A DNA stretch of 13,507 nt from a virus (lineage: Duplodnaviria; Heunggongvirae; Uroviricota; Caudoviricetes), in the IMG/VR virus record IMGVR_UViG_2534681663_000023, positions 1 to 13,507 of that record; one strand, written 5' to 3'. A program made the position numbers and the translations under genes. Positions 1 to 13,507 of this stretch are shown piece after piece (positions within the stretch are counted from its first letter, which is position 1; every line of letters starts with the position of its first letter). The notes below the pieces were generated by a model. That model ran no database searches. It saw only the letters and a program-made list of their open reading frames with translations, and had not been told where the DNA came from.

Positions 1-213
1 TTAAATTGTGCGGACGGCTACTGAACCGCAGCCGGTATTGATGAGAGTGAAGCACTTGCCCTTTAGCTCAAAGATGTATGCGGTTGCGTCTTTCATGTCA
101 AGTAACAAAGACTTTGTTGGCAGTTCAGTGAGTATGGCTGCTGCCCCATCATCGTCAATTGAAATCGTATGTCCGACCTCAAGGGCGATCAAATTAGAAG
201 TTATTTTTTTCAT
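1..213 (-). CDS. Hypothetical small protein (70 aa), complete with stop at 1-3
   Basis: ORF track; ATG at 213-211 preceded on the minus strand by GGATGA about 8 nt upstream; stop TAA is the reverse complement of positions 1-3. No recognisable family. The overlapping plus-strand ORF 8-337 looks less protein-like. Confidence 0.35.
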   Translation of the reverse strand: MKKITSNLIALEVGHTISIDDDGAAAILTELPTKSLLLDMKDATAYIFELKGKCFTLINTGCGSVAVRTI

Positions 214-469
214 TTCATATCATCCAACTGAACACGTAAATACCTTGCAATACTACTACCTATTGTATCAATACGGAATACTTATGTATCAAATACAACT
301 TAGTTTTAAGTTCTTAAATGAGTTATTTTTTAGATAGTTGTCTATTAATGAAGCCTTTTGCGGTCAGTAAACCTATGTAAAAAAATAGATAAGTCTTTAC
401 AACACTAACCTTTGATGTAATATCAGTAAGCACTTACCAAATAAAATCAAAACACGCAGGTTGATAATT

Positions 470-859
470 ATGGCTACCAACGAAACAAAAGAAGCTAAAG
501 TAAGTCGCTACGCTGCTTACATTGACGCTTTAATCGCGATTTCTCCGAAAAGCCAGGCGACCATCGCGAAAGAAGCAGGCTATAAAAACCCTAACAATCT
601 TTCACTTATCAAGAGCGGCAAAATCCCGCTTCCGATCGACAAGGTCAGAGCGTTGGCTAAAGCATTGGATGCCGATTCGGTCCGATTGATGCTAATGGTG
701 CTGGAAGAGCGTCATCCAGAGCTGTTAGCGTTTTTTCGCGACGAAGGCACAGCCCCTCTGACTAAAGATGAAAAACTAGTTCTGGAAGCCTTCCGTCGAC
801 GTTTCGGTGACCAACGTGGTGCGTCGGAGCGGGTTGTTGAGGCAATCAAGTCGCTATGA
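470..859 (+). CDS. Putative HTH DNA-binding regulator (about 129 aa), convergent with the integrase
   Basis: ORF track 461-859 begins at TTG; the first ATG is at 470 with AGG about 9 nt upstream. The segment SQATIAKEAGYKNPNNLSLIKSGKIPLPIDKVRALAKAL reads like a helix-turn-helix of the XRE/phage regulator kind. Its 3' end overlaps the integrase 3' end by 6 bp. Confidence 0.5.
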   Translation: MATNETKEAKVSRYAAYIDALIAISPKSQATIAKEAGYKNPNNLSLIKSGKIPLPIDKVRALAKALDADSVRLMLMVLEERHPELLAFFRDEGTAPLTKDEKLVLEAFRRRFGDQRGASERVVEAIKSL

Positions 860-1957
860 GAAATTTACACGGATTAGCTCAGTAGCGAGTCGATCTCCCT
901 TGAACTTATGATCTATCTCCTCTAAATCCTGTTTCTCTACGATTGATGCGATGTACGCCGAAAAACTGTTTAAGGCGTCTCGCATCTCGTCTATATAATC
1001 GTGTCGATCGTATACTCGATCTATCCCCTCAAGACTGTGGTTCATAATTTTGCGGGATACCTCCTGACTTATGCCTAACGCGGGGAAGTAACTACGCGCA
1101 GTACGACGCAAATCTCGGGGAGTAAATGGCTCAAGCTCCATCAACTCTGGACGTTCTAAAATCCTTCTCAACGCCTGTGATATGGCCACCTTAGACATTG
1201 GCACATCCTCACCCTGTTTCTTGTTTGAAGGAACAAGCCACTGGCTGCCTTTTCCGTATTTGATCAGCTCCTCAACACATTTGCGCATTAGCGGGCTTAA
1301 TGGTAACGAGTGCTGGCGAGCCGATTTATTCCTCGTTCCTTGATTCCATAAATTATATTCGAGGTTGAATTCTGATCTTTTAGCTCGGAGCACTTCATCT
1401 GGTCGTCTGGCCGCTACAAGGCATAATCTGGCCGCCCACTTTGTACCCTCACATACGTTGAAGTAGTCCCATACATTCCAAAAGACCCAGACCTCTGCGT
1501 CGGTCAGTTTGCGCTCGCGCGGCGTGGGCTTCGCGCCACCGGCTACTCTGTTAAGCGACATATCGTTCAATGGGGATGTATCAATTAAGCCCTGAAATGC
1601 ACACCAACTGAGAAACTGCTTCATCAGCGAGAACACACGTCTGCCCTGGACGATCTTGCCCTCAAGTATTAATGGGTTCACCAGCTGGTTGACTAAAACC
1701 CTACTAATATCACTTACTTTTACTTCACAGATATGCGGCATTACATGTATCAAAATACAATGAACAGCTATTTCAGGTCGACGTCTCGTTATCAGCAAAG
1801 ATAAGCGAGTGAATAACATGAATGCGGAAGAAAACGACATATCACCGTCGAAATTGGTGGTCGACACTGCTGACAAACCGGAAGCGCGTTCGAGATACTC
1901 GATGGCTTCTCTAGAGGTGTTTTCTGCTGCGCGTGCTTTATCAAAAGTGTTTTTCAT
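854..1957 (-). CDS. int: Tyrosine-type site-specific integrase, P4-like family; true start uncertain
   Basis: C-terminal catalytic region matches the phage integrase pattern: ARRPDEVLRAKRSEFNL (box I Arg), KSARQHSLPLSP, RDLRRTARSY, NHSLEGIDRVYDRHDY (catalytic Tyr). The first ~75 residues of the ORF do not look like the usual P4-type arm-binding domain, so the real start may be internal (for example the Met of MPHICEVKV). Confidence 0.8.
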   Translation of the reverse strand: MKNTFDKARAAENTSREAIEYLERASGLSAVSTTNFDGDMSFSSAFMLFTRLSLLITRRRPEIAVHCILIHVMPHICEVKVSDISRVLVNQLVNPLILEGKIVQGRRVFSLMKQFLSWCAFQGLIDTSPLNDMSLNRVAGGAKPTPRERKLTDAEVWVFWNVWDYFNVCEGTKWAARLCLVAARRPDEVLRAKRSEFNLEYNLWNQGTRNKSARQHSLPLSPLMRKCVEELIKYGKGSQWLVPSNKKQGEDVPMSKVAISQALRRILERPELMELEPFTPRDLRRTARSYFPALGISQEVSRKIMNHSLEGIDRVYDRHDYIDEMRDALNSFSAYIASIVEKQDLEEIDHKFKGDRLATELIRVNFS

Positions 1958-2054
1958 AGTCCACTCACTGAGTGAAGCCTGTTTTTACTGTATTTATAAA
2001 CAGTATGTTAGGCCTAAGTTTTGTATGATCAACAGTAAAATAGACTGTTTTTGA

Positions 2055-2089
2055 AAATGATTCCATACCTTACAAGTATGGAATCATTT
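2055..2089. repeat. Perfect 14-bp inverted repeat AAATGATTCCATAC / GTATGGAATCATTT with 7-bp spacer, about 100 bp upstream of the integrase start
   Basis: Read directly from the sequence; both arms contain the recurring motif ATGATTCCATAC. Candidate operator or recombinase binding site. Confidence 0.7.
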
Positions 2090-2256
2090 ATATAGCTTAC
2101 GTAAATTCTGAATAAATTATGTAGACAAACCATCTTAAACGCTAAATAGTAAAAAGCGCCTAATAACGCCAACTTTGGAATGCCATCTGAGCCAGATTGA
2201 TGAGAATGATTTGTTAGAAGAAAAAGAATGATGAAGAAGATGACGATCGCTAAAGT

Positions 2257-2673
2257 TCAGCTAGAATGGAAACCTTCTGCGACTTCAGCGAAGTAGCTGA
2301 GCAACCTAGTATCTCTTGCTGGCATACGATCGTGAGCTGGAGTGACTAGCCCCATCAGCAAAAAACGCCCGCTATCCCACATGTGCTCGGTATAAACGAG
2401 ATAGTGGTTTGAGGTTCGGTTGTAGTTCTCTTGCCTTGCGTTCCAGGTAAGCTGGAAATGCAAATTGACGTGAATATGCTGGACATTAGCATCAACGGCG
2501 AACGGCGGGAAGTCAAATGGCGCATCTCGTCCAAGAAGATTAGATGGTGCGCCAGTTGATTTGTAAGTAATGAACTCGGATTTGAGCTGACTTTCTAGGT
2601 CAGGGTAAACGACAAAAGTGGGCTGAAAAAAATCATCCCACGTAACTTGACTGTATTCAGCCGTTAATGCCAT
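2257..2673 (-). CDS. YafO-like type II toxin (putative ribosome-dependent mRNA interferase), 138 aa
   Basis: Blocks recalled from E. coli YafO appear in the same order: ITYKSTG...LLGRDAPFDFP, HIHVNLH, HYLVY, ARD. The start ATG overlaps the stop of the upstream gene (ATGGCATTAA). Identification is from memory and needs a profile search. Confidence 0.5.
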   Translation of the reverse strand: MALTAEYSQVTWDDFFQPTFVVYPDLESQLKSEFITYKSTGAPSNLLGRDAPFDFPPFAVDANVQHIHVNLHFQLTWNARQENYNRTSNHYLVYTEHMWDSGRFLLMGLVTPAHDRMPARDTRLLSYFAEVAEGFHSS

Positions 2674-3212
2674 TTAGCCGCAGCCTTGTTGCCAGTCTCT
2701 AATAGATGGTTCATGGCTAAAAGGTTGACACCAGAGTCACGCACTACAGAAGTGCGTGTAATCTGATCAATCAGATTGAGATAGTTTTTGGTCGCAATAC
2801 TGACCATTTTAATAGCCTTAAAAAACGCAAACTCAACAGTGTTTTTTTCGTAAGACATGATGACGTCTTTTTCAGGTAACATCAAAACAAAAGATTCTGC
2901 GATACCGGCTACATGAATAGTTTGATTCTTAATTTCTTCCGCTACTTTGATAGCAGCAAAGAAGTCAGTGTCAGCATAATGAGCAAGTTCAGCGCGGCTT
3001 GAACGCAGTTCTTTAGCCAATTCATTGAGAGCAGCTGTAAGATCACTGATGTCGGTTTTGTTGACTCTAGCGCCCATCTCATAAACCCGTTCTACAATCG
3101 TAGGCTGACACGCAACCGCTTTGGGTTGCGGCTGGATACTGGCAAGAACCAGTGCCACTGCTGCCTGCAAATGCTGGATTTTAAATTTCACGATAGACTC
3201 CATAATCGTCAT
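2664..3212 (-). CDS. Hypothetical protein (182 aa), translationally coupled upstream partner of the YafO-like toxin; possible atypical antitoxin
   Basis: ORF track; 8-nt overlap with the toxin start; no recognisable domain by eye; much larger than YafN or Phd-type antitoxins. Confidence 0.45.
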   Translation of the reverse strand: MTIMESIVKFKIQHLQAAVALVLASIQPQPKAVACQPTIVERVYEMGARVNKTDISDLTAALNELAKELRSSRAELAHYADTDFFAAIKVAEEIKNQTIHVAGIAESFVLMLPEKDVIMSYEKNTVEFAFFKAIKMVSIATKNYLNLIDQITRTSVVRDSGVNLLAMNHLLETGNKAAAKWH

Positions 3213-3293
3213 TTCTCGACGAAGCGTAGCATTCTACTACTGAACTTAACTATAAGCTAAAAAAAGTTGGTTGCATATGCGACTTGATAGCAA

Positions 3294-3320
3294 AAAGGGG
3301 CCGAAGCCCCTTTGGATTTT
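3294..3320. terminator. Bidirectional rho-independent terminator hairpin (GGGGC-CGAA-GCCCC) flanked by A/T runs
   Basis: On the minus strand the stem is followed by TTTTTG, which would terminate the tRNA-Asn transcript before the toxin module; on the plus strand it is followed by TTTGGATTTTG. Confidence 0.5.
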
Positions 3321-3387
3321 GCGCTGAAAAAAGTGTTGCTACGATGCTTAGAAGCAATGGTTAAAAAACGTCTGCCGTGTCTATCAC

Positions 3388-3462
3388 AGCGCTGAACGGT
3401 CTGGCGACATTTGCGGAGTCTTTCGTTCGGACGGTGGTGGCGAATCCAAACCGTTCAGCGCT
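3388..3462. repeat. Perfect 13-bp inverted repeat AGCGCTGAACGGT / ACCGTTCAGCGCT enclosing 49 bp, immediately 3' of the tRNA
   Basis: Read directly from the sequence. Lies between the tRNA 3' end (3467) and the terminator; could be a processing or structural element, or a small repeat element. Confidence 0.6.
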
Positions 3463-3466
3463 ATGT

Positions 3467-3541
3467 TGGCGATGGTGGGTGGACTCGAACCACCGACCAG
3501 TTGATTAACAGTCAACCGCTCTACCACTGAGCTACACCATC
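3467..3541 (-). tRNA. tRNA-Asn (anticodon GTT), 75 nt with encoded CCA
   Basis: Manual fold of the minus strand: acceptor GATGGTG/CACCATC, D-arm GCTC-AGTGGTA-GAGC, anticodon stem GTTGA/TCAAC with loop CTGTTAA (U33, GTT, A37), variable TGGTC, T-arm GGTGG-TTCGAGT-CCACC, discriminator G, CCA. Confidence 0.85.
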
Positions 3542-3704
3542 ATTTTCGCGGCGGTACTAGCTTATGGACAACCAGGCAGCCAGAAACTTTCCCGTAACTT
3601 GCACTTTACGTTAGTGCCAGACGAGGTATGTGGCTCGCTCATATGAGCGAAGATCTCGAATCTTTCTCGGTGGTTGATTGCCGTTAGATTCTTCGATCTT
3701 ATTG

Positions 3705-3719
3705 GATGTATGGAATCAT
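3705..3719. repeat. 15-bp direct repeat GATGTATGGAATCAT, copy 1 of 2 (second copy at 4725-4739)
   Basis: Exact 15-bp identity read from the sequence. Its reverse complement ATGATTCCATACATC carries the recurring motif. Copy 1 sits within the local palindrome ATGTATG-GAAT-CATACAT. Confidence 0.7.
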
Positions 3720-3790
3720 ACATGTTGTGAAGCCAGGGGCAATAAAGGCAACAATGTTTTCACTAGAGGGTTAATTAATCCTGCTTTCAC

Positions 3791-3900
3791 AACGTTGAGA
3801 TCACTGAACCGATTAATGTTCAACCCAACATATTGATCAGTCGCTACAGCTATGTGGAATCGCCTGTATGATTTTAAGAAAAATCAGTGATCTCAACGTT
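3791..3900. repeat. Perfect 17-bp inverted repeat AACGTTGAGATCACTGA / TCAGTGATCTCAACGTT separated by 76 bp, in an ORF-free region
   Basis: Read directly from the sequence; arms at 3791-3807 and 3884-3900. Candidate structured RNA or miniature inverted-repeat element. Confidence 0.65.
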
Positions 3901-4266
3901 ATGTGCTGACTAACCAAGTCAGCCGGGTTACGTCGCCGCTTTTAACCCAAGTATAAACGACATAAGTAATGGAAATGACGTAACAGAATGGACGGTCAGC
4001 TGAAACCGGGATGGGGGAATGGAATGATGAAACCAACCGCCCATTCTGTTACTTCATTGAATGGGGCATGGATGGTGCAATATGCCCTATTCTGCGTTCT
4101 GCAATCACACTCGCTCAGTGTGTCCCATTTTGGTGACGAGGCTGGAAACTGACCTCGCTGGTGTTTGGCTTCTTAGGCTACTGCCAGGTATGCATCTTCG
4201 TTTGCAGTTATATTTAACGTTCAAACAGTCGCATCTCAACGAAAACAAAGTGATCTTATACATATT

Positions 4267-4290
4267 AGATAAGTAAGTAAATACTTATCT
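4267..4290. terminator. Possible weak hairpin (AGATAAGTA / TACTTATCT, 6-nt loop) at the end of the small-ORF operon
   Basis: 9-bp AT-rich stem overlapping the stop of the 101-aa ORF; no strong U-run, so terminator function is uncertain. Confidence 0.25.
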
Positions 4291-4590
4291 ATCTGTGATG
4301 CGTTTAGTTGCTATCTTTTTGATCAGGCTCCCCTTTTGTTCCGAAGTTCTCATGATGATGGCGGTAAAACGCTTCGCTTGAATAGTGATAGTTTCGTTTT
4401 CCTTGAGTTCGCCGTAATGCGTCTCTAACAGGGACCCCAGACGCCACAGACCGTCGTCTATGCGTTTATGGCTGGCGAATCTGATCAGCAGTAGCTTTAC
4501 GATTAACTGACCAATGTAAAAGGCAAATCCGAAGCCGGCCGCCACAAGGTAGGTTGCCAGCCACCAGTCGAAGGAAGTCAAATTGCTCAT
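4285..4590 (-). CDS. Hypothetical small membrane protein (101 aa), last gene of the coupled small-ORF chain
   Basis: ORF track; N-terminal hydrophobic stretch WWLATYLVAAGFGFAFYIGQLIVKLLLI; its ATG overlaps the stop of the upstream 50-aa ORF (AAATGAGC). Confidence 0.45.
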   Translation of the reverse strand: MSNLTSFDWWLATYLVAAGFGFAFYIGQLIVKLLLIRFASHKRIDDGLWRLGSLLETHYGELKENETITIQAKRFTAIIMRTSEQKGSLIKKIATKRITDR

Positions 4591-4739
4591 TTTCGCACTC
4601 CCGTCTCGTGAACAACCCGATACACACGCTTACCGACACGAAGTGTTTTGGTTTGCAGTTCCTGCTGGACCAGGGCGCGGCAGATTGCGAGGCCGAGGCC
4701 CACGCCACCAGTAAAAGATAAAATGATGTATGGAATCAT
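4587..4739 (-). CDS. Small ORF (50 aa, below track cut-off): MIPYIILSFTGGVGLGLAICRALVQQELQTKTLRVGKRVYRVVHETGVRK; small membrane protein or relic of a sensor-kinase 3' end
   Basis: Translated by hand. Start ATG overlaps the stop of the 70-aa ORF (TGATG); stop overlaps the start of the 101-aa ORF. The GC-rich segment encodes GVGLGLAICRALV, reminiscent of the histidine-kinase G2 box. The start codon lies inside repeat copy 2. Confidence 0.35.
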   Translation of the reverse strand: MIPYIILSFTGGVGLGLAICRALVQQELQTKTLRVGKRVYRVVHETGVRK

Positions 4740-4951
4740 CAGTGCGCCCCCGCCTCAGTCAATTGCTGCAACAACAAATAACCTTTTTCAGTCAGTTGAT
4801 AGTTCTCAATACATCCCTTTGGAGAAACGTTGGCGACAAGATTCATGCGCTCCAGTTTGGCTCTGGTCTTCGGCTTCCAGTTGGCGTAGAACTCCTTCCA
4901 CTTGCTGATTTCACGCAGGGTTTCCTTCTCTCGTTTACTTAACATGCTCAT
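4739..4951 (-). CDS. Hypothetical small soluble protein (70 aa), possibly winged-helix-like
   Basis: ORF track; overlaps the 3' end of the 59-aa ORF and is coupled to the 50-aa ORF. Charged, helical-looking sequence (LSKREKETLREI ... LTEKGYLLLQQL). Confidence 0.45.
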   Translation of the reverse strand: MSMLSKREKETLREISKWKEFYANWKPKTRAKLERMNLVANVSPKGCIENYQLTEKGYLLLQQLTEAGAH

Positions 4952-5114
4952 CCTTAATCTCCTTCAGTGTGTCCGTGATATCTACTATGCGATAAATACG
5001 ACCTCGCCTTTGCATGACACCGGCTTTTACGTAATCGTGGATACAGCTGGACATAACCAGACTTCCGATAACAATGCCGACGACTAAAAATACAAACATC
5101 CAGCCGAGCATCAT
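4935..5114 (-). CDS. Small ORF (59 aa, below track cut-off): MMLGWMFVFLVVGIVIGSLVMSSCIHDYVKAGVMQRRGRIYRIVDITDTLKEIKDEHVK; predicted single-pass membrane peptide
   Basis: Translated by hand. Its ATG (5114-5112) overlaps the TGA (5113-5111) that ends the reconstructed native ligase frame (ATGA overlap). Confidence 0.4.
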   Translation of the reverse strand: MMLGWMFVFLVVGIVIGSLVMSSCIHDYVKAGVMQRRGRIYRIVDITDTLKEIKDEHVK

Positions 5115-5156
5115 TCTTTATCTCCAATACGATCTTCGGTATCTCGAAGACATTTA
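5111..5156 (-). other. Displaced native 3' end of the ligase gene (encodes ...CLRDTEDRLGDKE-stop), separated from the gene body by the transposon
   Basis: Joining the sequence right of the right-hand ATTTA to the sequence left of the left-hand ATTTA keeps the ligase frame open for 13 more codons and ends at TGA 5113-5111. Confidence 0.55.
5152..5156. repeat. Target-site duplication ATTTA, left copy (right copy at 10797-10801)
   Basis: Identical 5-bp sequence immediately outside each terminal inverted repeat; 5-bp duplications are typical of Tn3-family transposition. Confidence 0.8.
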
Positions 5157-5194
5157 GGGGAGCCCGCAGAATTCGGAAAAAATCGTACGCTAAG
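5157..5194 (+). repeat. Transposon terminal inverted repeat, tnpA-proximal (38 bp); contains the tnpA stop codon
   Basis: GGGG...ACGCTAAG architecture typical of Tn3-family ends; tnpA stop at 5190-5192 lies within it. Confidence 0.85.
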
Positions 5195-8156
5195 GTTTTC
5201 CGGGCATCCGTAAGGGCCGAAACTTCCCGTCTTCCAGTCTGCGGCTCTGCCGCCAGACGTAATCGCCGGTTAGGTTGATGTGCTCCCAGCCCAGCGGCGA
5301 CAGGAATTGCAGCAGCTCGCCGTCCACCGGCTTGCCGGCCTCGACCAACCCCTGGGTGGCGCGTTCCAGGTACACCGTGTTCCACAGCACGATAGCCGCC
5401 GTCACCAGGTTGAGGCCGCTGGCCCGGTAGCGCTGCTGCTCGAAGCTCCGATCCCTGATTTCCCCAAGGCGGTTGAAGAACACCGCCCTGGCCAGCGAGT
5501 TGCGCGCCTCACCTTTGTTCAGGCCGGCATGCACGCGGCGGCGCAGTTCAACACTTTGCAGCCAGTCCAGGATGAACAGCGTGCGCTCGATCCGGCCCAG
5601 CTCGCGCAGGGCCACGGCCAGTCCGTTCTGGCGCGGGTAGCTGCCGAGCTTGCGCAGCATCAGCGAGGCGGTGACGGTGCCCTGCTTGATCGAGCTGGCC
5701 AGGCGCAGGATGTCGTCCCAGTGGGCACGCACGTGCTTGATGTTCAGGGTGCCGCCGATCAGCGGGCGCAACGTCGGGTAGGCTTGCACGCCCTGCGGCA
5801 CGTACAGCTTGGTTTCGCCGAGGTCGCGGATGCGCGGCGCGAAGCGGAAGCCTAGCAGGTGCATCAGGGCAAAGACGTGATCGGTGAAGCCGGCCGTGTC
5901 GGTGTAGTGCTCCTCGATCCGCAGGTCGGACTCGTGGTACAGCAGGCCGTCGAGCACATAGGTGGAATCGCGGACGCCGACATTCACCACGCGGGTGCTG
6001 AACGGCGCGTACTGGTCGGAGATATGGGTATAGAACAGCCGTCCCGGCTCGCTACCGTACTTCGGGTTGACGTGCCCGGTGCTCTCGCCCCGGCCACCCG
6101 CGCGGAAGCGCTGGCCATCGGAGGATGAGGTCGTGCCGTCGCCCCAGTGGGCGGCAAAGGCGTGGCGATACTGGTGGTTGACCAGCTCGGCCAAGGCCGC
6201 CGAATAGGTTTCGTCGCGGATGTGCCAGGCTTGCAGCCAGGACAGCTTGGCGTAGGTCAGGCCGGGGCTCGACTCGGCCATCTTGGTCAGCCCGAGGTTG
6301 ATCGCATCACCGAGGATTGCGGACAGCAGCAACGTCCTGTCTTTGGCCTCGGCCCCGTCCTTCAAGTGGGTGAAGTGGCGGCTGAAGCCCGTCCAGTCGT
6401 CCACGTCCATCAGCAGTTCGGTGATCTTGATGCGCGGCAGTAACTGGCTGGTTTGGTCGATCAGCGCCTGCGCCCGATCCGGCACCGCCGCATCCAGCGG
6501 GGGGATTTTCAGCCCTGACTCGGTGAGGATGGCATCGGGCAGCTCGTTGTCCTTGGCCAGGCGGGTGACGGTGGCCAACTGCTCGTCCAGCAGCTGCAAA
6601 CGCTCTTCCAGGTACTGGTCGCTGTTCGGGTTGATCGCCAGGGGCAGGGCCTGCTCGCGCTTGAGTGCGGCGAACTTCTCGGCCGGCAGCAGGTAGTCGT
6701 CGAAGTCGCGGAACTGCCGCGAGCCCTTGACCCAGATGTCGCCGGAGCGCAGGGCGTTCTTCAGCTCGGACAGGGCGCAGATTTCGTAGAATTTCCGGTC
6801 GAGGCCTTCCGGGGTGATCACCAGCGGCTTCCAGCGCGGCTTGATGAAGGCCGTGGGTGCATCGGCCGGCACCTTGCGCAGGTTGTCGGCGTTCATCTCA
6901 CGCAGGGTCTGCACGGCTGCCAGCACGCCTTGCGCGGCCGGCGCGGCGCGCAGTTCCAGCACCTCCAGCAAGGCCGGCGTGTAACGGCGCAGGGTGGCGA
7001 AGTTCTCGCCGACCAGGTGCAGGTGGTCGAAGCCTTCCGGCCGGGCCAGCAGCTCGGCCTCGCTGACGCTCTCGGTGAACTCGTCCCAGGGAATCACCGC
7101 CTCGATGGCGGCATAGGGGTCGCTGCCGCTTTCCTTCGCTTCCAGCAGCGCCTGGCCGATCCTGGAGTACAGGCGCACCTTGTCGTTGATCGCCTTGCCC
7201 TGCTTCTGGAACTGCTGCTGATGCTTGTGCTTCGCGCCGCTGAACAGCTTGACCAGGATGCGGTCATGCAGATCGACCAGCTCATCGATCACGGTCGCGG
7301 TGCTCTCCAGCACCACGGCGGCCAGGGTCGCGTAGCGGCGCTGCGGCTCGAACTTACCGAGGGCTTTGGGCGTCATCTGCCCACCCTCGCGGGCCAGCTT
7401 GAGCAGGCGGTTCTGGTGGATGTGCCGGCCCAGGCCTTCGGGCAAGTCCACCAACTGAAATGTCTTCAGCCGCTCGATGTGTTCCAGCATGTGCCGAGAG
7501 TTGGGTTTCAGCGGTGCCTGGCGCAGCCAGGTCAACCAGGTGATGCTGCTGCCGGCCTTGAGCTTCAACAGCTCGTCCAGCTTGGCCCGATGCGAGTCCG
7601 TGAGTGGTTCGACCAGGGCGCGGTAGACCCGCCGATTGGCTCGCGCAATGGCTTCCGAGCAGGCCCGGTCAATCACGCTCAGCGCCGGCAGGATGCGTCG
7701 TTTCTGCCGTAGGCTCTCCAGGGCCTGACCGGCCAGCAGCAAGCCTTTGTCGGTCTGCTGGGCCAGCTCGGTTAGCTCGCGCACCAGGGCGCGGAAGTCG
7801 GACAGGCCGAACGGGGCCAGTTGCAGGTAGGTGCGCAGTTCCTGGGCATGCTCGCGACGGGTCACGTCGCGCTCGCCGTACTTTGCCCAGCTCGCCGGCT
7901 CGGCCTGGACTTGCTTCGCCACCCACAGGATGACCGGCTCGGGCAGCTCGCTGTCGGTTCCCAGCGCGTAACCGGGGTAGCGCAGCAGGCAGAGCTGCAC
8001 GGCGAAGCCGAGGCGGTTGGCGTCGCCGCGTCGCTGGCGGATCAGCGACAGGTCGGAGTCGTTGAAGGTGTAGTAGCGGATCAGGTCATCCTGGCTTTCC
8101 GGCAGCGCAAGCAGGGTGTCCCGCTCCGTGGCCGAGAGGATCAAGCGACGCGGCAT
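5190..8156 (-). CDS. tnpA: Tn3-family transposase TnpA (988 aa)
   Basis: Length and sequence ([44 protein letters not shown]...) match Tn21/Tn501-type TnpA as recalled; very GC-rich relative to its surroundings; terminates inside the terminal repeat. Confidence 0.95.
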
Positions 8157-8159
8157 GTG

Positions 8160-8720
8160 TCAGTCGTCCGTGCGGAGGTACTGGTAGAGGGTTTCCCGGC
8201 TGATGTTGAACTCGCGGGCAAGCTGCGCCTTGGGCTCGCCGGCCGTCGCTCGCTGCCGCAGGGTAGCAGCCTGCTCATCGGACAGGGCTTTCTTGCGGCC
8301 CCGGTACGCGCCACGCTGCTTGGCCAAGGCGATGCCCTCACGCTGCCGCTCGCGGATCAGGGCGCGCTCGAACTCAGCGAAGGCCCCCATCACCGACAGC
8401 ATCAGGTTGGCCATCGGCGAGTCCTCGCCAGTGAACACCAGGCCCTCCTTCAGGAACTCGATGCGCACGCCGCGCTGAGTCAGCTTCTGTACCAAGCGAC
8501 GCAGGTCATCGAGGTTGCGGGCCAGCCGATCCATGCTGTGCACCACCACTGTATCGCCTTCGCGGACGAAGCTCAGCAGCGCTTCGAGCTGGGGGCGCTG
8601 GGTGTCCTTGCCCGATGCCTTGTCGGTGAACACCTTGCTCACCTGGGTTTGTTCCAGCTGGCGTTCCGGGTTCTGGTCAAAGCTGCTGACCCGGACGTAG
8701 CCGATGCGGTGCCCCTGCAC
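8160..8720 (-). CDS. tnpR: Serine resolvase TnpR (186 aa)
   Basis: N-terminal serine-recombinase motif (IGYVRVSSFDQNPERQ), C-terminal HTH (ISRETLYQYLR); sits directly upstream of tnpA in the same orientation, as in the Tn21 subgroup. Confidence 0.95.
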   Translation of the reverse strand: MQGHRIGYVRVSSFDQNPERQLEQTQVSKVFTDKASGKDTQRPQLEALLSFVREGDTVVVHSMDRLARNLDDLRRLVQKLTQRGVRIEFLKEGLVFTGEDSPMANLMLSVMGAFAEFERALIRERQREGIALAKQRGAYRGRKKALSDEQAATLRQRATAGEPKAQLAREFNISRETLYQYLRTDD

Positions 8721-8724
8721 GATG

Positions 8725-8900
8725 TCTCCTTGGTTGAAGGCGGCTTAAGTGCACTTTCTGTTCCGTTGTGCCTCAAAGCCCATTTCTGTCAGGCTGAAAT
8801 CTATAACCTTCGCGGGCATGTGTCAAAAAATGGGAAAGCAGACTCTATTCTGACGAAGCGGCGCGGCCCTGCCTGACATCAAGTTAGGGTATAGCCTAGA
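8725..8900. promoter_or_regulatory. Putative res (resolution) site and tnpR promoter region
   Basis: Lies immediately upstream of tnpR and contains several TGTCA/TGACA half-site-like repeats (TGTCAGGCTGAAAT..., CATGTGTCA, CTGCCTGACATC). Exact subsite boundaries not determined. Confidence 0.5.
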
Positions 8901-9029
8901 TTGACATGCGCGATGCAACCCTTAACTTGCTTGCACCTATCGTTTCCATGCTAGCTTTATCGTAACGCTCAAGAAATTGGGCTTAATGCCGAAAACAATA
9001 AAATAAAACAGCCAACCCTTGAGGTTCTT

Positions 9030-10607
9030 ATGCGCCAGAATTTACCAGTGACGGGTCGAAACTTAGAACTCCCAAAAGATGCCAATATTCTTTCGACTAC
9101 CTCCCCTCAAAGCCATATCACGTACGTTAATCCTGACTTCATTAAAATCAGTGGTTTCACTGAGGAAGAACTATTAGGCCAGCCTCACAACATCGTAAGA
9201 CACCCAGATATGCCGCCTGCTGCATTTGAGCATATGTGGAGTACATTAAAATCTGGCCGCTCATGGATGGGGCTAGTAAAAAATCGCTGTAAAAATGGCG
9301 ACCACTATTGGGTAAGTGCTTATGTAACGCCAATAGCTAAGAATGGTTCGATTGTTGAATACCAGTCTGTAAGGACCAAGCCTGAACCTGAGCAGGTTTT
9401 GGCTGCGGAAAAATTATATGCTCAATTGAGAAGCGGGAAGGCCGCGAGGCCGAAATTGGCTGCTAGCTTTTCCGTGAAAATACTCTTGCTCATATGGGGT
9501 AGTATTATATCAAGCGCAATGGCTGCCGGCATGCTTACTGATACATCAATAAGCAGCTTATTGTTAGCCACTTTAATGTCAGGAAGCTTAAGCTCTGTTA
9601 GTGTTTTGGCTATTCTCTCTCCTCTTGGAAGACTGGTTGAAAGAGCCAGGAATATTTCCAATAACCCATTAAGTCAATCCCTCTACACTGGGCGCACCGA
9701 TGAGTTTGGCCAAATAGAGTTTGCTTTACGAATGATGCAAGCTGAAACAGGCGCCATAGTAGGTCGCATAGGTGATGCATCAAATCGGCTTAGCGAACAC
9801 ACCCGAGGCCTACTAAAGGATATTGAGTCAAGCAATGTACTTACAGTTGAGCAGCAGGCAGAGACAGATCAAATAGCAACGGCAGTAAACCAAATGGTGG
9901 CAAGCATTCAAGAGGTTGCGAGCAATGCACAGCATGCTGCAGATGCGGCCGGAAGAGCAGACACTGAGACGGCATCTGGCCAGCGTCTGGTAGCCCACAC
10001 AAGCCAGTCAATCACTGCCCTTGAAGGTGAAATTAGGCAAGCCACTCAGGTTATTCATGAGCTTGAAGGTCAAAGTAACGAGATATCAAAAGTTCTTGAC
10101 GTTATACGAGGGATCGCCGAGCAAACGAATTTGTTGGCACTCAACGCAGCAATTGAGGCCGCGCGTGCTGGTGAGCAGGGGCGTGGTTTTGCTGTTGTCG
10201 CCGATGAGGTTCGCAGTCTTGCTGCTCGCACACAGCAATCGACAACGGATATTCAAAGCATGATCAGCGCTCTACAAGAGCGAGCGCAATCCGCTGTTAC
10301 AGTCATGGAGCAAAGTAGTCGGCAAGCGCACACGAGTGTAGCTCACGCAGAGGAAGCAGCTACAGCTCTTGATGGAATTGGCCAACGCGTTAACGAAATT
10401 ACCGACATGAACGCGCAAATAGCGACTGCGGTCGAGCAGCAGGGAGCAGTAAGTGAAGACATAAACCGCAGTATTATCAATATACGCGATGCTGCTGATA
10501 CCAATGTACAGACCGGGCAGAATAATTTGCAAAGTGCGAAATCTGTCGCTCAGTTAACTAGCGCTCTGAGCGAACTGGCAAAACAGTTTTGGGAAAAACG
10601 AGGATAA
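9030..10607 (+). CDS. aer: Aer-like aerotaxis receptor (N-terminal PAS, membrane hairpin, methyl-accepting chemotaxis signalling domain), 525 aa; transposon passenger
   Basis: N-terminus closely resembles E. coli Aer PAS ([68 protein letters not shown]); hydrophobic hairpin near residues 150-195; conserved signalling core ([32 protein letters not shown]). Confidence 0.85.
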
Positions 10608-10626
10608 CGCTTTTCAGTATCTCGAC

Positions 10627-10661
10627 AGGGATAACTTACTTTACCATCGGTTATCCCTTTT
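10627..10661 (+). terminator. Rho-independent terminator after the chemoreceptor gene
   Basis: Hairpin AGGGATAAC-(14 nt)-GTTATCCCT followed by TTTT, about 20 bp after the stop codon. Confidence 0.5.
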
Positions 10662-10740
10662 AGCCGCACAAATTTTAGCCATGGCTTTTCAGGAAGTCAG
10701 GGCTATCAGAATGGCCTTAGAAAGCCTAGTCAAAGAGCTG

Positions 10741-12078
10741 TCACGAGAACACCGTTAGCTTAGCGTACGATTTTTTCCGAATTCTGCGGTTCCCCCATTT
10801 AGGCCACTTCAGACGTGGATGACGCAAGCTACCATCTGGCGTTTTCTCATGGCAGTGAACCTCAACGATGCGTCCACGATACTTCTCCTGATTGTTCCAG
10901 ATTTCATCCAGGTATTTATGCTTGATACCGCTGGCACGAACGATGACGCCGTTCTCCAGACGAATCACTATCTTGCCTAGCGTATGCGCAAATCCAGAAT
11001 CCGGATCGCCAGGCTCGAAGTCGATGATTTCACCGTCTTCTGAATCCTCGTCTTTCAGCTTCCACCAGCTGCGGGTACGTTTGAACTCGTAAACTGAATC
11101 CGGATCTTTGCCCATCTCTCCCTCTTCATTCTCGTCCAGTCGCTTCATGAAACGTTCGATGAAATCTTCGTGGCTATGGATGATGTAGAACGGATGAAGG
11201 TGGATATCTTGCGCATAATCTTCCACGCAAGTGTTGCGGAACAACGCCACCAGCATAGCCAGGCGCTCTTTCAGCTTCATACCGGTCTTCAGGTACTCTT
11301 TGCTTTTTGCTTGAGCACGCCACTCCGGTAAGAAGAAATCGAAAATGTGGTAAACGGCACCAATGGCTTTCACGTTCTTCTTACGAAGCGCCGACACTGA
11401 CTGGTTGAATGTACCTGCAGTGCCCTCTCCATCGAAGAAGATGTGATTGAAGCCGGAGAGTCTGCCCCGCTCCAGCATGGCTGGTTTAAGGTGATCGAGT
11501 GACGTAATCGGATTGCCGGTGCGCGTCAGGAAATTGACCTCACCCTCGTCCACGATGACTTCGCAGATAACCCGGAGACCATCGAGTTTGAGACTGCCGA
11601 TCATTGGCCACTTGGCCTTTGGATTTGGTTTAAATGGGTATTTGTCGCCTTTCTCCTTGTACGGAGACGCCAGCTGTACCTCAAACTTCGGAATTGGGTT
11701 TTCGAACACCTTGTTGCACAGGCTGATGCCGACACCGGCTTTCGGATCTTTCAGCAGGAAGCGACGAAACACGTCCTGCCCGTCAGCGCACATCGAGGCA
11801 ACGAGTGATTCGACAGCAGCAATAGCGATGTTCCCGGTCAGTTCGCGCGCTGCCAGCTTCTCCAGCAGATCTACTACCTTCTGGTCGCTGGGTACGGAAG
11901 TATCGAGTGGCTCGGCCACTTTGTACTTCTTCACACCGAATCGAATGAATGGATTGAGCATTAGCGAGACCATGCTCTGTTCAAATTCATCCAGATTGGC
12001 CAGCGCCTCTTTCTTGGCGTTGGTTCCCATCGTTTTAATAGCATCCAGCTTGTGCTTTAGGGCGATCAGTTTTTCCAT
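10741..12078 (-). CDS. T4-type ATP-dependent DNA ligase; 3' end interrupted by the transposon (last 18 codons of this ORF are read from the ATTTA duplication and terminal repeat)
   Basis: Nucleotidyltransferase motifs in order: I KLDGLR, III FFDGEG, IIIa YHIFDF, IV EGEMGKD, V WWKLK, VI LRHPRL. N-terminal region parallels T4 ligase as recalled (LTGNIAIAAV, ISLCNKVFENPIP, LASPYKEKG). GGAGG lies about 10 nt upstream of the ATG. Confidence 0.85.
   Translation of the reverse strand: MEKLIALKHKLDAIKTMGTNAKKEALANLDEFEQSMVSLMLNPFIRFGVKKYKVAEPLDTSVPSDQKVVDLLEKLAARELTGNIAIAAVESLVASMCADGQDVFRRFLLKDPKAGVGISLCNKVFENPIPKFEVQLASPYKEKGDKYPFKPNPKAKWPMIGSLKLDGLRVICEVIVDEGEVNFLTRTGNPITSLDHLKPAMLERGRLSGFNHIFFDGEGTAGTFNQSVSALRKKNVKAIGAVYHIFDFFLPEWRAQAKSKEYLKTGMKLKERLAMLVALFRNTCVEDYAQDIHLHPFYIIHSHEDFIERFMKRLDENEEGEMGKDPDSVYEFKRTRSWWKLKDEDSEDGEIIDFEPGDPDSGFAHTLGKIVIRLENGVIVRASGIKHKYLDEIWNNQEKYRGRIVEVHCHEKTPDGSLRHPRLKWPKWGNRRIRKKSYAKLTVFS
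10759..10796 (-). repeat. Transposon terminal inverted repeat, passenger-proximal (38 bp)
   Basis: Reverse complement matches the tnpA-proximal repeat at 35 of 38 positions; followed immediately by ATTTA. Confidence 0.85.
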
Positions 12079-12112
12079 TAGTGTTTAACCTCCATCGGTC
12101 GCTCGGGAGTTT

Positions 12113-12589
12113 TCATGTGTTTTCTTTGGTTGCTTCTTCAATGAGTGCCGCGTACACGTCAGTGACCGGCGCCAGTGAATCGGTGGGCTTGGTTTCGGAT
12201 TTAGCAGGTTCTGTTTTCTTCGTGCGATGAATAAGACTGTCAATTGTCGCGGTGTTTCGCTTCCGGGGGAGCGTTCTGGCATGGTCGTTTTGCTCTTCCA
12301 CTTCTTTGATAAGTGAAGACATATCGATGAAGTAGAGCTGTTCGTCTTTGCGGATCTCTTCGACCATCATTTTCAGTGCCTGACATTTACCAGCAGCAAT
12401 AGCCGCAGCGCAGGACTGGAACGATGTAGCCGGGAGACGTTTTTCTTTATAGGCGAGGATCGTGTGTTGGCAGACTGTATAGCTGCAATGAGCCTCATGG
12501 CCGTTGAGCTTCACTTCCGGGCAGCGCAGCGAATAACCGTTGTTTCCGGAGATAGACGGGATTTTCGACAAATCTGTTCTTGTGGACAT
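12113..12589 (-). CDS. Hypothetical Cys/His-rich protein (158 aa), possible zinc-binding; directly upstream of the ligase
   Basis: ORF track; cluster RCPEVKLNGHEAHCSYTVCQH...CAAAIAAGKC; 34-bp gap to the ligase start, same strand. No family recognised. Confidence 0.45.
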   Translation of the reverse strand: MSTRTDLSKIPSISGNNGYSLRCPEVKLNGHEAHCSYTVCQHTILAYKEKRLPATSFQSCAAAIAAGKCQALKMMVEEIRKDEQLYFIDMSSLIKEVEEQNDHARTLPRKRNTATIDSLIHRTKKTEPAKSETKPTDSLAPVTDVYAALIEEATKENT

Positions 12590-12636
12590 GCTTCTAACCG
12601 TAATCTTGTACTTACTTATTAATCGCAGTTTAAAGA

Positions 12637-12653
12637 AGCCCCACGAGGGGGCT
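12637..12653. other. Short GC hairpin (AGCCCC-ACGAG-GGGGCT) between the upstream gene and the 158-aa gene
   Basis: Read from the sequence; no convincing U-run on the minus strand, so it may be an attenuator or structural element rather than a terminator. Confidence 0.25.
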
Positions 12654-12670
12654 AAATGTTTTATCGAGGC

Positions 12671-13069
12671 TTACCAGGTCGCCCAGCCAGTCATTTTGTC
12701 CTGAGCAGCTTCGAACCGGTATGGGTCCAGTAAATCGTTGGTACGATGAACGGCGTAGGATTTGGCTTCTTGTTTAATCATGGGTAATTCGTTGGCCAGA
12801 CGAGCCACTTGCCCTGCAAAACTGGCGAGTACTCCGTCACATGCCTGACCCGCGTCGACAATGATGCGCACCAGGTCTAAGTCGCTGCGGCACATATCGC
12901 AGATAATGCCGTATTCCACCTCACGAATGCGCTCAACGGCTTTTTTGATATCGCCACTGACCACCAATTCCAGCAAACCAGGTGGAGTTGTCAGATCTGT
13001 TACGCGCTCGGTAACTTCAGACTGTTCGACAATACTCAGGAACGCCGCGATGGACGGGTCATCCGCCAC
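12671..13069 (-). CDS. Hypothetical protein, probably the C-terminal part of a larger gene truncated by the IS3-family insertion
   Basis: The annotated start is GTG with no clear RBS; the frame stays open for 19 more codons upstream (ERFEDIVDATLRTLKVRAG...) right up to the IS boundary at 13127. No family recognised. Confidence 0.4.
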   Translation of the reverse strand: MADDPSIAAFLSIVEQSEVTERVTDLTTPPGLLELVVSGDIKKAVERIREVEYGIICDMCRSDLDLVRIIVDAGQACDGVLASFAGQVARLANELPMIKQEAKSYAVHRTNDLLDPYRFEAAQDKMTGWATW

Positions 13070-13126
13070 ACCAGCTCTGACTTTGAGCGTGCGAAGAGTT
13101 GCGTCGACAATATCCTCAAACCGTTC

Positions 13127-13507
13127 TGAACCGCCCCGGAAATCCTGGAGACTAAACTCCCTGAGAAAGAGGTAAACAGGATGACTAAAAATACTCGTTT
13201 TTCCCCCGAAGTCCGTCAGCGGGCGATTCGTATGGTTCTGGAAAGTCAGGATGAATATGACTCACAGTGGGCGGCAATTTGTTCCATTGCCCCAAAGATT
13301 GGCTGTACGCCGGAGACTCTGCGTGTCTGGGTTCGCCAGCATGAGCGGGATACCGGGGGCGGTGATGGTGGGCTCACCAGCGCTGAACGTCAGCGTCTGA
13401 AAGAGCTGGAACGTGAAAATCGTGAACTGCGCCGCAGTAACGATATCCTTCGCCAGGCTTCCGCTTATTTTGCGAAGGCGGAGTTCGACCGCCTCTGGAA
13501 AAAATGA
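13127..13507 (+). mobile_element. IS3-family insertion sequence (IS629/IS1203-like), left end; continues beyond the window
   Basis: Terminal sequence TGAACCGCCCCGGAAATCCTGGAG... followed about 55 bp later by an OrfA-type gene; matches the IS629-like left end as recalled. Confidence 0.8.
13181..13507 (+). CDS. IS3-family transposase OrfA (108 aa, HTH plus leucine zipper)
   Basis: [23 protein letters not shown]...[34 protein letters not shown] is the typical IS3 OrfA; ends at an A6 run before TGA, consistent with the programmed -1 frameshift site into OrfB, which lies outside the window. Confidence 0.9.

Follow-up and report, generated by a model that had tools for sequence, protein, structure and literature searches.

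The window analysed here, a stretch of 13,507 nucleotides (nt) of viral DNA (Caudoviricetes; positions 1 to 13,507 of the IMG/VR record IMGVR_UViG_2534681663_000023), carries on its minus strand a chain of four overlapping small open reading frames (ORFs), referred to below as A, B, C and D, which very probably represents the conserved distal end of a helicase-primase-ligase replication gene array in a phage-plasmid of the SSU5 supergroup. The best explanation of the locus as a whole, to which we assign a probability of roughly 0.35, combines this identity with a function: the chain would encode a membrane complex that acts together with the replication enzymes during the lytic cycle.

Identity and organization of the small-gene chain

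Judged by its sequence, the window is a phage-plasmid of the SSU5 supergroup (SSU5/pHCM2/pMT1 type), which includes the SSU5_pHCM2, pKpn, pSLy3 and pMT1 groups (PMC7969092). Over the 961 bases that surround the chain, which match 463 PLSDB records, identity is 99.8% with E. coli plasmids of 106 to 115 kb, 89.5% with Salmonella phage SSU5 and approximately 75% with Escherichia phage Cyrano. In SSU5, the counterparts of A to D (SSU5_045-048) are located immediately 3' of the DNA ligase gene SSU5_044, within a co-oriented array that comprises a DnaB-like helicase, a primase, two unknown genes, the ligase, the four small genes, a tRNA-Asn, CobT/CobS-like genes and a DNA polymerase, and the layout of this replication array is the same in Cyrano. 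SSU5_045-048 and CYRAN_37-39 are direct orthologs of the ORFs in the window, with 70 to 93% amino acid identity and the same order, overlaps and position after the ligase; the Cyrano annotation omits A, yet the ORF is present in the Cyrano sequence. Different from these orthologous loci, the ligase gene of the window is split by a transposon, described further on. The four proteins are already annotated in databases as hypothetical, and their exact sequences occur many times in NCBI.

On the minus strand, the chain consists of A (4935..5114; 59 amino acids from the first ATG), B (4739..4951; 70 amino acids), C (4587..4739; 50 amino acids) and D (4285..4590; 101 amino acids). A (SSU5_045, phrog_4381), C (SSU5_047, CYRAN_38, phrog_6302) and D (SSU5_048, CYRAN_39, phrog_4507) are predicted to be single-pass membrane proteins, C and D being the core members and A a paralog of C, while B (SSU5_046, CYRAN_37, phrog_4054) is a soluble, basic protein with a predicted minimal winged-helix fold. 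An initial annotation, made from the letters of the DNA, had described four ORFs overlapping at every junction, and this description proved accurate: A and B overlap by 17 nt (4935-4951), B and C by 1 nt (TGATG) and C and D by 4 nt (ATGA). Furthermore, a Shine-Dalgarno-like site is found 8 to 16 nt before each start (GGAG for A, AAGGAG for B, GAGG/GGGGG for C and GGGAG for D), and a consensus scan inside the chain returned no terminator-like site and only weak promoter-like matches. From the overlaps, the presence of a Shine-Dalgarno site for each start and the absence of an internal terminator, it follows that the four genes can be regarded as one polycistronic, translationally coupled unit. 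The junction between B and C varies: the clade of the window has TGATG, that of E. coli/Cyrano an overlap of 4 nt.

The same annotation had proposed that A is coupled through an ATGA to the stop codon of the native ligase. The overlap of stop and start does occur, with the ligase stop TGA (5113..5111) overlapping the start of A within the AATGATG at 5115..5109; however, the ligase is split by the transposon in this element, and translation of A has its conserved start at the second ATG (5111), giving a protein of 58 amino acids, because the SSU5 clade reads CTGATG at this place. At the opposite end of the chain, an AT-rich perfect 10-bp inverted repeat (TAGATAAGTA / TACTTATCTA, with a 6-nt loop) at 4266-4291 spans the stop codon of D. 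Since it has no T-tract, it is not a typical intrinsic terminator.

Evidence that the four ORFs are genes

According to the conservation analysis, which covered 67 IMG/VR loci containing D plus SSU5 and Cyrano, A to D behave as real genes that encode proteins and are subject to purifying selection. Their starts keep fixed offsets of -524/-521, -361, -149 and 0 from the start of D in 61 distinct sequences, and a chain with the same spacing is kept down to approximately 65-70% amino acid identity; the conservation of ORFs and overlaps in related genomes, a check that had been named beforehand, was thus confirmed. The ratio of nonsynonymous to synonymous substitution rates, calculated by the Nei-Gojobori method between diverged pairs for the annotated frame and for the other two, is 0.14 for A, 0.08 for B, 0.24 for C and 0.09 for D in frame, as opposed to 0.6-2.1 in the other two frames. 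Moreover, each protein matches a PHROG over its full length (phrog_4381 for A, E 1.1e-38; phrog_4054 for B, 2.8e-44; phrog_6302 for C, 1.3e-32; phrog_4507 for D, 5e-58), all four being families of unknown function.

Predicted membrane proteins A, C and D

Hydropathy analysis (Kyte-Doolittle, 19-residue window) identified one strongly hydrophobic N-terminal segment in A (residues 7-25), C (2-20) and D (approximately 12-36), with values of 1.8-2.6 for the hydrophobic 19-mers, and none in B, in line with the three N-terminal hydrophobic helices that the initial annotation had noticed. In the three proteins, no Lys or Arg residue precedes the helix and three to four follow it within 15 residues. 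By the positive-inside rule, the basis used here for topology, A, C and D are predicted to be bitopic inner-membrane proteins with an external N terminus and a cytoplasmic C terminus (N-out/C-in). The predicted periplasmic parts amount to just 1-11 residues, and the C-terminal tails to 25-65 residues.

The external N termini are nearly invariant, with MLGWM in A, MIPYI in C and LTSFDWW in D. The transmembrane (TM) helices feature conserved small-xxx-small motifs, namely G12xxxG16 in A and C, which is invariant in A, and G19xxxA23xxxG27 in D, where it is followed by the invariant Q28. Motifs of this kind usually mediate helix-helix packing, and their conservation in A, C and D therefore suggests that these proteins oligomerise. 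The cytoplasmic tails are basic in the alignments, and those of A and C share the pattern K.GV..R.GR(I/V)YR(I/V)V, which takes the form RRGRIYRIV in A and KQELKTxxxRxGxRVYRVV in C. In D, the juxtamembrane stretch VKLLL..FA..KRIDD.LW.LG is invariant, and the structural model, of moderate confidence (predicted local distance difference test, pLDDT, 68.5), places a predicted beta hairpin at residues 67-80 (ETITI / RFTAI) after a predicted helix.

The comparison of A with a profile of diverse C sequences (hhalign probability of 94.7%, E 6e-8, 46 ungapped columns) indicates that A and C are paralogs. A relationship of D with either of them was rejected, the hhalign probabilities being 0.3% and 2.9%. 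The D profile gave nothing below E 0.19 against PDB sequences, and a Foldseek search of viral structures with the moderately confident D model gave nothing below E 0.18.

Two database labels attached to these proteins do not fit them. The label of lipoprotein, which one entry gives to an ortholog of A, was rejected, as the N terminus is uncharged, the MSSC box is poor and conservation does not extend to the Cys of A, which is absent from the Cronobacter ortholog. The Cys of C is absent from distant C-like proteins. Sequence inspection revealed no lipobox in A, C or D. For D, NCBI propagates the name 'C-type natriuretic protein', a misnomer that neither family searches nor sequence features support, and literature searches returned nothing on this name in connection with a plasmid, nor on the pMT1 locus tags.

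ORF B as a minimal winged-helix protein

In its structural model, B is a minimal winged-helix protein with the H1-S1-(H2)-H3-wing arrangement, in which the first helix of the helix-turn-helix appears reduced. The nearest known winged helices are MarR-type regulators, TubR and STIV F93. However, different from MarR, B is a bare domain that does not contain the MarR dimerisation helices, and its binding to DNA is putative. Membership in the MarR family proper was rejected, since B has 70 amino acids compared to approximately 140, has no Pfam or NCBIfam MarR match and gives profile matches in the PDB with E > 0.2 only. No Pfam or NCBIfam model reaches its cut-off on B, and the B profile found nothing below E 0.19 among PDB sequences. 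We also considered the palindrome CAACGTTG, located in a hairpin arm downstream of D, as a repeated operator for B, and we discarded this idea because just one exact copy occurs in the window. Both the winged-helix fold of B and the paralogy of A and C had been missed by the initial annotation.

Core pair, accessory members and distribution

The comparison of loci showed that C and D constitute the core pair of the chain, with A as a duplicate of C, and both A and B as accessory members. In 13 loci of one E. coli lineage (L029, L035-38, L041, L042, L044-46, L065, L067 and L068), A is precisely deleted and B is left ATGA-coupled to the ligase. The breakpoint of this deletion falls between two imperfect 16-nt direct repeats, GGAGATAAAGAATGAT (5106-5121, ligase end/A start) and GGAGATTAAGGATGAT (4946-4961, A end/B start), which points to recombination between the repeats as the event that removed A. 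Single loci present a frameshift in A, a split B or a fusion of B and C. In a Klebsiella plasmid (L071, 2107-2355), the ligase, A and most of B are gone and an 82-residue fusion of the ligase N terminus with the B C terminus is found, with C and D intact and their overlap retained; the paper on Klebsiella p2 has nothing on the A-D genes. Other deletions join the ligase N terminus to B or D (P0026 and P0099). The most distant relatives of D occur in two forms, namely a ligase followed by a C-like gene of 55 amino acids and a D-like gene, with neither A nor B, or a D-like gene alone, with the ligase missing; the C-like gene lies immediately 3' of the ligase in L074 and L080. By tblastn, A is found in 532 PLSDB records, B in 637, C in 682 and D in 659. 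It is from the losses of A and B, the distant loci with C and D only and these counts that we recognise C and D as the core.

As a further observation, several independent deletions join the first approximately 30-65 ligase codons to B or D, with junctions in the middle of either gene or at the end of B, and in plasmid lineages the stretch from the ligase to D looks like a hot spot of deletion.

Outside the SSU5-like elements of Enterobacterales, the families searched (B, C and D) appear to be absent. When B, D and the C profile were run as word-indexed searches on 5.8 billion proteins, every relative found was SSU5-like and from Enterobacterales. An exhaustive hidden Markov model search of 1.84 billion representatives with the D profile gave 19 matches, two of which are long proteins of 808 and 1181 amino acids (E 2.9e-6 and 3.6e-4); the remaining matches inspected are SSU5-like relatives or fragments, with three distant loci lying in SSU5-like replication arrays. 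Scans of all four proteins with Pfam, NCBIfam and PADLOC produced chance-level matches only.

In Y. pestis pMT1 (L073, NC_017266.1 71020-71846), all four genes are intact, with approximately 92% identity, and have caf1R and the F1 capsule operon as immediate neighbours. The pMT1 ligase appears to have lost its 5' end to IS100.

Expression in the plasmid state

Expression data are available for E. coli LF82 carrying Cyrano, grown overnight in LB, in the form of normalised counts (PMC9928086, S1 Table). In the plasmid state, the ligase has a count of 5.9, and the homologs of B, C and D have counts of 6.4, 5.0 and 7.6 (PMC9928086). Lytic genes at the floor level include the terminase (7.1), holin (8.6) and endolysin (5.4) genes, and expressed genes include those for the repressor (96), ParA (50) and KacT (344), as well as CYRAN_43 (7084) (PMC9928086). 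In this one strain, the homologs of B to D are silent in the plasmid state, alongside the ligase and the lytic/late genes, a silence that argues against roles in toxin-antitoxin activity, lysogenic conversion or protection of the lysogen.

Possible function of the chain

We suggest that A, C and D would insert in the inner membrane with only a short N-terminal stretch exposed outside and the basic tail at the C terminus facing the cytoplasm. The GxxxG motifs of A and C and the G19xxxA23xxxG27 motif and Q28 of D would pack the helices into a homo- or hetero-oligomer, so that C and D, with or without A, may assemble as a membrane oligomer. The overlap of start and stop codons would tie the synthesis of A to D to that of the ligase, in a fixed proportion with the replication enzymes, and production of the four proteins would await activation of the lytic replication genes. 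The site of action would be the cytoplasmic face of the membrane, and our preferred guess for the complex, a tentative one, is a role in tethering or organising the replicating phage DNA or the replisome, B being an optional accessory DNA-binding partner. It is possible to hypothesize, with still greater caution, that C, D and the paralog A form a new inner-membrane complex specific to phage-plasmids, whose beta-hairpin tails recruit DNA or the replisome, possibly via B.

For small membrane proteins that are made early and encoded alongside replication genes, the sole characterised precedent is represented by p1 and p16.7 of phi29, which anchor the replication machinery to the membrane (PMC4974454). 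Like p16.7, the membrane proteins of the chain have an N-terminal anchor and are encoded with replication genes; p16.7 and p1 are likewise small, with one membrane anchor and a cytoplasmic part, and are encoded among early replication genes. However, phi29 replicates by protein priming in a Gram-positive host, and the likeness is one of context and architecture only.

Several points weigh against a membrane complex working with the replication enzymes. The chain shows no sequence or fold similarity to p16.7, p1 or any solved structure, save for the generic winged helix of B, no homolog of A to D has an experimentally tested function, and the mechanism is drawn from genomic context. The topology is a prediction from a single rule, the positive-inside rule, the model of D is just moderately confident (pLDDT, as given above), and expression in the lytic phase is deduced from silence in lysogeny in one strain. 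Moreover, A and B are dispensable in natural lineages, and deletions of the whole region that fuse the ligase N terminus to B or D occur; it follows that none of the four genes is needed for plasmid maintenance and that B is not an obligatory partner of C and D. Finally, pMT1 keeps all four genes despite its apparently IS100-truncated ligase, which fits a strictly ligase-tied role poorly.

Nearly as likely as the replication tether, and thus itself a tentative explanation, is that the proteins are effectors of host takeover or exclusion, which would bind and inhibit machinery of the host inner membrane, such as the divisome, FtsH or a transporter or receptor that incoming phage DNA uses, or would block a superinfecting phage early in the lytic cycle. 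The 'membrane effectors' of the initial annotation are too broad a category to be refuted. Small early phage membrane proteins acting in host takeover or in the block of superinfection include Imm and Sp of T4 and gp56 of SPO1, which resemble the proteins of the chain in size, in their single or few TM helices and in their early/middle expression, but differ in having functional periplasmic or larger domains and no homology to them. The small size, single-pass and basic character, lineage specificity and apparent lytic-cycle expression of A, C and D agree with such a role, the highly conserved short periplasmic N termini and TM motifs would suit helix-helix binding to a membrane target, and the individual gain and loss of members is typical of accessory takeover genes. 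Nevertheless, periplasmic parts of this length give little surface for an incoming phage, no similarity was found to the Imm, Sp or Cor families or to the anti-phage defence and exclusion models of PADLOC, which gave a single chance-level match (E 0.048), and SSU5 already has a Cor exclusion protein annotated elsewhere (SSU5_025); in addition, as the genes are not expressed in the plasmid state, they could not protect the lysogen. Equally novel would be the alternative of a hitherto unrecognised family of early peptides, viroporin-like or binding a host target, that is peculiar to the SSU5/pHCM2/pMT1 supergroup. Highly improbable, instead, is a module of the plasmid state, concerned with toxin-antitoxin activity, maintenance, regulation or conversion, in which B would be a repressor and the membrane peptides toxins or effectors. 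The predicted DNA-binding fold of B is typical of small repressors, C resembles type I toxins in size and hydrophobicity, and the four genes are intact in pMT1 beside the caf1 operon despite the apparently truncated ligase. However, the B-D homologs lie at the read-count floor in LF82 lysogens, where the element's own toxin-antitoxin, par and repressor genes exceed them 10- to 1000-fold, the genes are co-oriented and overlapping with the replication operon, and they are frequently deleted in plasmid lineages. For the small toxins suggested by the initial annotation, there is no match to toxin, toxin-antitoxin or defence models, and a type I or small-toxin module is not supported, given the floor-level counts in that one strain and the absence of a strong antisense promoter or any other strong promoter and of a conserved antisense ORF.

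The least probable reading is a function in lysis, be it as an extra holin, antiholin, pinholin, spanin set or viroporin-like depolarising pore, although holin/spanin-like lysis genes had been the first comparison made for this chain. Holins and spanins of lambdoid and T-even phages are likewise small, with one TM helix, a charged tail and tightly packed overlapping genes; A, C and D each have the TM helix and charged C-terminal tail expected of a holin, and the GxxxG/glycine-zipper motifs and the in-membrane Gln of D resemble pore-forming helices, motifs of this type being linked to pore formation. However, different from holins and spanins, the chain lies outside the lysis cassette and is co-expressed with replication genes. 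In both SSU5 (SSU5_026-030) and Cyrano (CYRAN_22-25; 26.7-28.2 kb), the tail-fibre genes are followed by a complete lysis cassette with holin, endolysin, Rz and Rz1, at approximately 10 kb from the small-gene chain; no endolysin adjoins the chain, and no holin or spanin family match was obtained for A to D in Pfam, PHROGs or NCBIfam. Furthermore, a hole-former would come too early, because translation of the chain is coupled to that of a replication enzyme of the early/middle phase. As for spanins, an outer-membrane subunit (o-spanin) was rejected since A, C and D have no lipobox Cys, and an inner-membrane subunit (i-spanin) because it needs the opposite, N-in/C-out topology and a long periplasmic coiled coil, whereas the tails here are short and predicted to be cytoplasmic. 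On the separate cassette, the location, the topology and the absent family matches, we rejected A to D as the lysis system of the phage.

The transposon-split ligase and other features of the window

The ligase gene is interrupted by a Tn1722/Tn1721-type transposon of the Tn3 family (5157..10796; 5,640 bp, with 38-bp inverted repeats), which we take to be the Tn1722 core of Tn1721. It carries tnpA (8156..5190, minus strand), tnpR (8720..8160, minus strand) and an MCP-like gene (9030..10607, plus strand), and it is flanked by a 5-bp target duplication, ATTTA, at 5152-5156 and 10797-10801. The 5' part of the gene, which encodes an ATP-dependent DNA ligase (PF01068, phrog_114), occupies 10797..12078 on the minus strand, with an ORF that extends into the transposon repeat to 10741; the orphaned 3' end (5111..5156, minus strand) comprises the last 13 codons (CLRDTEDRIGDKE) and the stop codon over the start of A, and includes the 5152-5156 copy of the duplication. 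The insertion lies 42 nt before the stop codon of the ligase, whose reading frame now continues into the repeat in place of its last 13 residues. In this element, the transposon separates A to D from the promoter that natively serves them and leaves no full-length ligase to which their translation could be coupled. Since tnpA points toward A, read-through may now supply transcription of the chain. The junction between transposon and ligase is absent from the PLSDB records among the 5,000 matches listed.

Downstream of D, a 740-nt untranslated stretch separates the chain from the next conserved gene, a tRNA-Asn(GTT) at 3467..3541 on the minus strand. It contains two long hairpins (3788..4058, minus strand), with arms at 3974-3996/4036-4058 (23 nt) and 3788-3807/3884-3903 (20 nt), and predicted energies as RNA of -44.5 kcal/mol for 3788-3903 (z -5.1) and -37.4 kcal/mol for 3974-4058 (z -7.4). 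Across the supergroup, the arms are conserved and the loops diverge, with 3 and 2 compensatory pairs, respectively, and several G-U pairs in the coding-strand RNA; an Rfam search of 3200-5200 found no family besides tRNA. At the RNA level, the hairpins probably form structures where the operon ends on its 3' side, and they may be sites for RNase III or other processing, or 3'-stabilising structures.

Between the tRNA-Asn and the integrase sits a pair of minus-strand genes (2257-3212), consisting of a YafO-type toxin gene (2257-2673; PF13957, E 1e-19) and, overlapping it by 10 nt, an upstream ORF of 182 amino acids (2664-3212) that has no family match and may encode the antitoxin. The pair may be cargo, because in the SSU5 region examined the tRNA is followed by CobT/CobS-like genes. 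A repressor-like gene (461-859, plus strand; phrog_8, transcriptional regulator) lies tail to tail with the tyrosine integrase gene (854-1957, minus strand), with a 6-nt overlap. The same arrangement is found in Cyrano (CYRAN_45/CYRAN_44), where the repressor is among the few genes expressed in the plasmid state.

Significance

The arrangement in itself is ordinary, in that it is common for a phage replication operon to have small, overlapping genes without an assigned function at its end. What the analysis adds is the recognition of the C-D core, of A as a paralog of C and of the winged helix of B, together with the repeat-mediated loss of A, the expression class, the disruption by the transposon and the exclusion of the lysis reading. 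Few large non-conjugative plasmids in E. coli, Klebsiella, Enterobacter and Salmonella are as common as the SSU5-like phage-plasmids, to which S. Typhi pHCM2 and Y. pestis pMT1 also belong. A defined role for C and D would annotate hundreds of genes now called 'hypothetical', including the misnamed 'C-type natriuretic protein', and could reveal how a siphophage of Gram-negative hosts uses the membrane in replication or host takeover. If the proposed recruitment of DNA or the replisome by a phage-plasmid-specific complex is true, it would represent a Gram-negative counterpart of the membrane-organised replication of phi29, built from unrelated proteins.

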